Assembly (NCBI RefSeq): GCF_053078305.1
Contig: NZ_CP166879.1
Length of the DNA: 64,000 nucleotides
Strand: one strand, 5' to 3'
The notes under the pieces are model-generated. The model made no database searches. It saw only the letters and a list, made by a program, of their open reading frames with translations, and had not been told where the DNA came from. Positions 16,312-16,424 of this stretch are shown one piece after another (the stretch's first letter is position 1; each line of letters starts with the position of its first letter). The position numbers were made by a program, and so were the translations under genes.

Positions 16312-16424
16312 ATCACGCTCCGTGAAGAAAAATCGCAATATGACAAATATGAACGGCTTCTGACATTTTGCATTTACTTTCCTGTGATGGAGTGCTGATA
16401 TCGCCAACCTCGCAGGAGTCCACC
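16312..16424. promoter_or_regulatory. Divergent control region between the sensor kinase and the ABC/catabolic operon
   Basis: 113 bp gap between divergent starts; direct repeats TGACAAATATGAA (16341) and TGACATTTTGCAT (16361) spaced 20 bp; SD AGGAGT at 16414. Confidence 0.4.

Follow-up and report, generated by a model that had tools for sequence, protein, structure and literature searches.

The closest described system is the two-component pair of Escherichia coli O157:H7 that carries two sets of names. Liu et al. (2022, PNAS, PMC9860305) named the kinase and the regulator RbfS and RbfR (Z5692/Z5684). Yang et al. (2023, mBio, PMC10128022) named them LmvK and LmvR, and called the associated operon lmuKAIZYX. 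Their paper gives RT-PCR data for the operon and functions for its genes, and describes a mannose/lyxose uptake operon that is switched on by LmvR. The lmuX transcription start was mapped by 5' RACE, and a 240-nt promoter probe was shifted by LmvR in EMSA. The DNase I footprint of LmvR extends from -62 to -41 (22 nt) and contains the perfect direct repeat ATATGA-N3-ATATGA; a probe without the 22-nt site was not bound. Binding of phosphorylated LmvR in vitro and in vivo was reported from EMSA, DNase I footprinting, and ChIP-seq (PMC10128022). A second footprint, 21 nt long, comes from the ler promoter, where RbfR protects TCTCACATAATTTATATCATT (Liu et al. 2022, PMC9860305). The ler site predicted by Yang et al., ATTTTA-N3-ATTAGA, differs from that one (PMC10128022).

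Two other regulators of the OmpR/PhoB family serve as points of comparison. The pho box of PhoB reads CTGTCATA(A/T)A(T/A)CTGTCA(C/T), has an 11-bp period, and takes the place of the -35 element. The tor box of TorR is CTGTTCATAT, and box 3 is CCGTTCATCC (PMC9239176). In the torR-torC spacer of strain K-12, the tor boxes read towards torC.

We analyzed a 64-kb stretch of DNA, referred to here as the window, and identified the locus from NCBIfam matches and the RefSeq annotation of O157:H7 as genomic island OI-167. Table 1 lists its features. In O157:H7 the island lies between yjdP/phnP and yjcS, and the region is matched in 410 of 5426 complete E. coli genomes, mainly O157:H7. Published primers confirm two start codons: the lmvK deletion primer ends in ...CACGGAGCGTGATATGGCGCACCCC, which agrees with the ATG at 16311, and the start of lmvR is confirmed by a primer ending in ...GTAACCATGAAACCCGTC. 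The lmvK product is a TorS/VirA-like hybrid kinase by NCBIfam. LmvR matches the OmpR, VirG, PhoB, CreB, and TorR models over their full length (E-values 1e-48 to 1e-56) and has the receiver domain and winged-helix DNA-binding domain of the family. The NCBIfam annotation of this locus and its orthologs includes no regulator gene besides lmvR.

Table 1. Features of the lmvK-lmuX locus, in window coordinates.
Feature	Position	Strand	Remarks
lmvK / rbfS (Z5692, EDL933_5436), hybrid sensor histidine kinase, 753 aa	14050-16311	-	ORF, NCBIfam, RefSeq O157:H7
Divergent lmvK-lmuX control region, 113 bp	16312-16424		Within published 240-nt EMSA probe
Candidate lmvK promoter	16337-16366	-	-35 ATGTCA (16366-16361), 18-bp spacer, extended -10 TGTCATATT (16345-16337); predicted
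ATATGA-N3-ATATGA, LmvR dimer site	16338-16352	+	Half-sites 16338-16343 and 16347-16352; core of published footprint
Conserved block TATGACAAA.AT.AA(C/T)GG...CTGACAT..T.C.TTTA	16339-16376		38 bp, no indels in 15 taxa
First TGACA	16341-16345	+	TGA of half-site 1 plus first two bases (CA) of N3; invariant in 15 taxa
CCGTTCATAT, half-site 2 on the other strand	16347-16356	-	9/10 to tor box CTGTTCATAT; resemblance only
CTGACA, including second TGACA; candidate -35 of PlmuX	16360-16365	+	5/6 to TTGACA; outside footprint; deduced from footprint constraint
TTTTGCATTTA, deeply conserved stretch between candidate -35 and -10	16366-16376		Past published footprint
Candidate -10 region of PlmuX	16383-16393	+	Predicted; TGTGAT (16383-16388) overlaps TG.T..A.T (16385-16393)
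lmuX transcription start, deduced range	16393-16400	+	From footprint text and repeat coordinates; to within 8 bp
AGGAG, ribosome-binding site of lmuX	16414-16418	+	6 nt before ATG; AGGAG or GAGG in all orthologs
lmuX, sugar ABC transporter ATPase, first gene of lmuXYZIAK	16425-17945	+	ORF, NCBIfam, RefSeq
lmuXYZIAK operon	16425-22487	+	
Permease	17942-18916		NCBIfam
lmuZ, substrate-binding protein	18935-19876		NCBIfam
D-lyxose/D-mannose isomerase	19931-20614		NCBIfam
Ketose-bisphosphate aldolase	20629-21489		NCBIfam
Sugar kinase	21486-22487		NCBIfam
lmvR / rbfR (Z5684, EDL933_5428), OmpR/PhoB-family response regulator, 235 aa	22484-23191 (NCBIfam gene table: to 23209)	-	

Aligned with an O157:H7 locus (window 13657-25540 against L001), the window shows 98.8% identity in the island and 96.4% in the phn genes, and is not O157:H7. 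About 53 of the 88 listed differences from O157:H7 (13900-23600) fall within 14641-15325 of lmvK, on the minus strand. Their clustering in 700 bp of the cytoplasmic half of the gene suggests a recombination patch. In O157:H7 strain PV15-279, lmuX (L001, 9226-10746) has a CAG-to-TAG change at codon 486 (Q486*, window 17880) and is annotated as a pseudogene in RefSeq; the lmuX of the window is intact (506 aa). lmuZYX is required for growth of EDL933 on lyxose (Yang et al., PMC10128022), so the Q486* ATPase, which is 21 aa shorter, may still work. The island is described as essentially limited to EHEC and O55:H7 (PMC9860305 and PMC10128022). The 410 E. coli genomes that carry the spacer include O169:H41 and isolates from pig, horse, chicken meat, and wastewater. 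Other kinase homologs are assigned to E. ruysiae, E. marmotae, cryptic Escherichia clades, and Shigella boydii.

The complement of the lmvK start codon (CAT, 16309-16311) and the lmuX ATG at 16425 enclose the divergent spacer. The original prediction had singled out two TGACA words in this spacer as direct repeats on the same face of the helix, and proposed them as the operator of an OmpR/PhoB-family regulator of the locus. The observation itself is confirmed: TGACAAATATGAA begins at 16341 and TGACATTTTGCAT exactly 20 bp further on, at 16361, and no other TGACA or TGTCA occurs within 16200-16540. Taken by itself, the pair is weak evidence: when the spacer was shuffled with its dinucleotides preserved, at least one exact 5-mer recurred at a distance of 10, 11, 20, 21, or 22 bp in 28% of the shuffles, and at exactly 20 bp in 6%. 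The window has a single TGACA-N15-TGACA, where 0.09 would be expected, and the pattern turns up in 9% of shuffled windows. The two copies are two helical turns apart and therefore cannot be the half-sites of one dimer. The longest direct repeat of the spacer is AATATGA, found at 16337 and 16346, 9 bp apart.

We placed the published operator on the window. The primers EMSA-5434-F and -R match exactly at 16194-16211 and 16416-16433, so the 240-nt probe corresponds to 16194-16433. ATATGA-N3-ATATGA has a single perfect copy in the 64-kb window, and its half-sites stand in tandem with a 9-bp period, about one helical turn apart, as expected of OmpR/PhoB direct repeats. The O157:H7 spacer differs from that of the window only at 16404 (C/A), and its conserved block is identical; the LmvR site of PlmuX described in EDL933 (PMC10128022) is the same DNA. 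A 22-nt footprint that contains the 15-nt repeat must end between 16352 and 16359, and the lmuX start is therefore expected within the range given in Table 1. Because the -41 edge reaches 16359 at the furthest, the second TGACA (16361-16365) falls outside the footprint. With the repeat at 16338-16352, the first TGACA would be only a part of half-site 1. We converted the ChIP-seq summits of PMC10128022 to window positions through the lmvR CDS coordinates of the same table, and the summits at 5215275/5215274 of NZ_CP008957.1 fall at 16355-16356. Table S4 of that paper also lists a peak of 45586 reads at 5208491-5209087 of NZ_CP008957.1 (window about 22540-23140), inside the lmvR CDS. This high pile-up probably represents reads from plasmid-borne tagged lmvR and not a binding site.

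These placements partly support the original prediction. The spacer is indeed the operator of an OmpR/PhoB-family locus regulator that binds direct repeats, and it had already been published as such. The repeat unit was wrong: the protected repeat is ATATGA-N3-ATATGA in a 9-bp register, and PMC10128022 does not name TGACA-N15-TGACA as the repeat.

The second TGACA is most likely the -35 hexamer of PlmuX (CTGACA) and not a regulator half-site. It lies between -39 and -28 relative to the deduced start range. The hexamer TGTGAT follows CTGACA after 17 bp, an arrangement compatible with a start at 16393-16400. TGTGAT matches at 4/6 positions and lacks the A at position 2. Enterobacteriaceae conserve it, but outside the family the hexamer at this distance is a poor -10. 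The overlapping pattern TG.T..A.T is invariant in 15/15 taxa; it lies 22 bp after CTGACA and is without the usual A at -11. Scanning 16200-16540 for consensus sigma-70 promoters gave no match, and the CTGACA/TGTGAT pair was rejected by the scan. With so poor a -10, the lmuX promoter would be activator-dependent, a reading that the absence of a consensus promoter fits.

The ler promoter provides an independent view of the half-site register. On its reverse strand, the ler footprint contains ATATAA-N3-ATGTGA, which matches the lmuX repeat at 10/12 positions with the same N3 spacing (shuffle p about 0.012). Because the independent lmuX and ler footprints agree, they support the 9-bp register, and the architecture common to both is AT(A/G)T(G/A)A-N3-AT(A/G)T(G/A)A. 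The ler site predicted by Yang et al. matches the lmuX repeat at only 8/12 positions. An alignment of the ler footprint with the second TGACA region (TCTGACAT and TCTCACAT) gave 13/21 matches with a shuffle p of 0.04-0.13, short of significance, and we preferred the ATATGA register. The hexamer aligned on the second TGACA, TTCTGA, scores 4/6 in E. coli. Only CTGA is kept across taxa; its C, at a position occupied by A or G in both footprinted sites, never varies.

We examined conservation by searching the kinase protein against one genome per species and retrieving syntenic loci. These were found in Citrobacter, Enterobacter, Phytobacter, Pseudescherichia, Cedecea, Serratia, Acerihabitans, and Pantoea. 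Kinase and ATPase diverge in every locus; the permease, binding-protein, and isomerase genes come after the ATPase, and the regulator gene closes the locus at its other end. Phytobacter departs from this pattern in having no isomerase match, and one Enterobacter MAG has a truncated regulator match. We aligned 15 spacers (E. coli, four Citrobacter, Pseudescherichia, two Enterobacter, Phytobacter, Cedecea, Serratia, Acerihabitans, and three Pantoea). Across the 15 orthologous loci, which represent nine genera, neither TGACA copy varies, nor does the distance between the two; the original prediction had named a lack of such conservation as evidence against itself. The kinase proteins of these taxa are only 52-82% identical, and identity in the sensor half drops as far as 52-59%. 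The lmuZ binding protein is 86-97% identical across genera (L002-L016) against 52-70% for the kinase sensor half, and has weak similarity to TorT. A TorT/TorS-like arrangement, with the binding protein also presenting sugar to the kinase, would be consistent with this.

Conservation is concentrated in the 38-bp block. Among six genera, mean pairwise identity is 0.90 for the block (16339-16376), compared with 0.30 for the left flank (16312-16338) and 0.35 for 16401-16424. The footprinted core (16338-16352) reaches 0.91 (91-93% across genera). The right sub-block CTGACATTTTGCATTTA (16360-16376, 17 bp) reaches 0.95, above the footprinted core. It lies past the published footprint, and its conservation exceeds the normal need of a -35 hexamer and spacer. 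The alignments show the whole 38-bp block, as sequence, to be ancestral to the system across Enterobacterales. The block lies at a near-constant distance from the lmuX ATG, but anywhere between 27 bp (E. coli, Citrobacter) and about 235 bp (Cedecea) from that of the kinase; the block is thus tied to the lmuX promoter. Scans of the 64-kb window and of 14 orthologous 20-kb loci turned up no extra copy of either half of the block, which leaves one per locus. Two spacers carry G/C-rich palindromic insertions (CCCTCTCCC...GGGAGAGGG) that are REP/MITE-like, in Cedecea (L011, about 8806-9000) and Phytobacter (L006, about 8900-9000). These insertions expand the spacer to 321 bp and 180 bp, respectively. 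They are found on the kinase side only, and the operator-to-lmuX distance is untouched.

Published expression data bear on both sides of the spacer. LmvR overexpression raised lmuX 695-fold and lmuY 408-fold, and reduced lmvK to 0.26-fold (a 3.9-fold fall, padj 2.7e-16; Table S3, PMC10128022). Mannose or lyxose did not induce lmvK (Fig. 4A legend, PMC10128022). The LmvR site of E. coli stands 24-48 bp away from the lmvK ATG and fully overlaps the candidate lmvK promoter, which scores 8/12 and falls under the scan threshold. Because the LmvR site covers the only plausible lmvK promoter, a single LmvR binding event would repress lmvK, presumably by occlusion, as TorR does at torR while activating torC. 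The RNA-seq values and the geometry together imply that LmvR represses its own kinase; the accessible portion of PMC10128022 contains no discussion of this feedback. The original prediction had raised autoregulation of the kinase as a possibility. lmvK does respond to LmvR, but the effect is repression and not positive autoregulation, and mannose brings no induction. The 3-fold induction of rbfS by riboflavin (Liu et al., PMC9860305) conflicts with both the repression of lmvK on LmvR overexpression and the lack of induction by mannose.

Some orthologs have a different kinase-side sequence. Serratia, Acerihabitans, and Pantoea (L012-L016) carry a conserved AGTATA(G/A)A (TATACT when read along the kinase strand) about 22 nt left of the block and 22 nt from the first TGACA. 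On the lmuX side, in mirror image, the second TGACA and the conserved T..A.T are likewise separated by 22 nt. TATACT may be a kinase -10 in a symmetric divergent layout since lost from E. coli and Citrobacter.

Taken together, we consider it likely that in the divergent lmvK-lmuX control region of OI-167, LmvR acts on ATATGA-N3-ATATGA to activate lmuXYZIAK, that the second TGACA is a -35 element, and that lmvK is repressed. In the literature, a phosphorylated LmvR dimer is reported to bind 16338-16352, centered near -52 of the lmuX promoter, and to activate the operon. Four findings sit uneasily with this model: the right sub-block is more conserved than the footprinted core, the TG.T..A.T motif kept in all taxa is 22 bp after CTGACA and has no A at -11, the candidate lmvK promoter scores only 8/12, and riboflavin induces rbfS (PMC9860305). 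LmvR~P might instead oligomerize over the whole 38-bp block, with the second TGACA as a low-affinity, promoter-proximal half-site overlapping the -35. The units of such an array would be TGACA (16341), TGAAC (16350), and TGACA (16361), spaced by 9 and 11 bp, possibly with a fourth degenerate unit, and the array would resemble tor boxes or the OmpR F1-F3 sites. All three units follow T.TGA(C/A)(A/C) at about 10-bp phasing, with TGA cores and spacing invariant in 15 taxa, and conservation of the right sub-block past the footprint also favors such an array. The paralog TorR uses four boxes with hierarchical, cooperative occupancy (PMC9239176). The ChIP summit is also nearer to the center of the block (16357) than to that of the ATATGA pair (16345), but this 12-bp difference is below the resolution of a ChIP summit. 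The loss of binding on the 22-nt deletion fits either model. We judge the extended array unlikely: the published footprint ends at -41 (PMC10128022), and the TTCTGA hexamer at the second TGACA is a 4/6 match in which only CTGA, with its invariant C, is conserved.

The conservation of 16360-16376 beyond what the footprint accounts for could also reflect the site of a second factor, such as a global carbon or oxygen regulator, or core-promoter DNA common to overlapping divergent promoters with LmvR as the switch. CTGACAT is near-palindromic and its minus strand supplies an ATGTCA spaced 18 bp from the extended -10 TGTCATATT, and lmuX and lmvK respond oppositely to LmvR. However, the locus has no other regulator gene, and none of the CRP, FNR, Cra, ArcA, NarL, or sigma-54 consensus motifs could be fitted by eye to the right sub-block. 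A common -35 may not be general either, given the better kinase-side -10 (TATACT) of Serratia, Acerihabitans, and Pantoea, 22 nt left of the block. We give these readings very little weight. We find it scarcely credible that the two TGACA words recur merely by chance and have no function themselves: shuffled sequences do produce such repeats at the frequencies given above, but both copies and their spacing are invariant in nine genera and the flanks are only 30-35% identical, which contradicts chance. Alongside the LmvR activation model, we hold only tentatively that CTGACATTTTGCATTTA is a functional element past the footprint, either a second low-affinity LmvR~P site or a -35 region used on both strands. 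If a -35 were shared on opposite strands, a single LmvR dimer would redirect RNA polymerase from the kinase to the operon promoter and place the sensor under negative feedback.

The original prediction suggested searching the regulator-yjcS spacer for the same repeat, and it does not occur there. TGACA, TGTCA, TGAAC, and GTTCA are all absent from that spacer, and only a borderline gapped resemblance to the operator appears at about 23400-23440 (p about 0.05). A probe covering this stretch was shifted by LmvR (Yang et al., PMC10128022). The DNA there is core E. coli sequence upstream of yjcS, present in 5345 of 5426 genomes, and lies outside the island. The upstream regions of the regulator orthologs have no block-like motif in common.

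LmvKR (RbfSR) ties the sensing of mannose, lyxose, and riboflavin to type III secretion in E. coli O157:H7, and the lmuX operator matters because it defines the native specificity of LmvR. Its ancestral and almost invariant sequence from Escherichia to Pantoea and Serratia argues that the native job of the system is sugar catabolism. What this analysis adds to PMC10128022 is minor: the deep conservation of the operator, the conserved 17 bp past the footprint, and the implied negative feedback on the kinase. The available parts of that paper report neither cross-genus conservation, nor the 17 bp, nor the consequence for lmvK. At ler, a virulence promoter acquired by horizontal transfer, the same regulator binds a degenerate copy. 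The ler sites would then be secondarily recruited copies of the operator, and the common architecture of the two footprints could serve to re-screen hundreds of weak ChIP peaks.

We compared the LmvR operator to those of PhoB and TorR. As in PhoB-type activation, a head-to-tail dimer is expected on two direct-repeat half-sites upstream of or overlapping the -35, and lmuX half-site 1 on the minus strand, TTGTCATAT, is near the pho box CTGTCATA. Unlike a pho box, the LmvR site has a 9-bp period and is centered near -52, upstream of a good -35-like hexamer.

The likeness to torR-torC is closer in arrangement than in sequence. LmvR is 36% identical to TorR over 233 aa, and the window contains one tor-box match with at most one mismatch (16347-16356) against 2.5 expected per 64 kb; with this identity and a single 9/10 unit, we did not assign the site to the tor-box arrays. 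The minus strand of lmuX half-site 2, CCGTTCATAT, has CCGTTCAT in common with tor box 3. The lmuX site has one tor-box unit at 9/10 with a neighbor at 7/10, whereas the TorR array has several decamers, and its repeat period is 9 bp rather than 10. The boxes at lmvK-lmuX face the repressed gene, whereas the tor boxes face the activated torC, and the divergent gene encodes the kinase here but the regulator at torR-torC. LmvK is TorS-like, and the lmuZ binding protein is weakly TorT-like. In both systems, an OmpR/PhoB-family regulator acts on tandem direct repeats in a divergent spacer, a catabolic or respiratory operon is activated, and the divergent two-component gene is negatively controlled.
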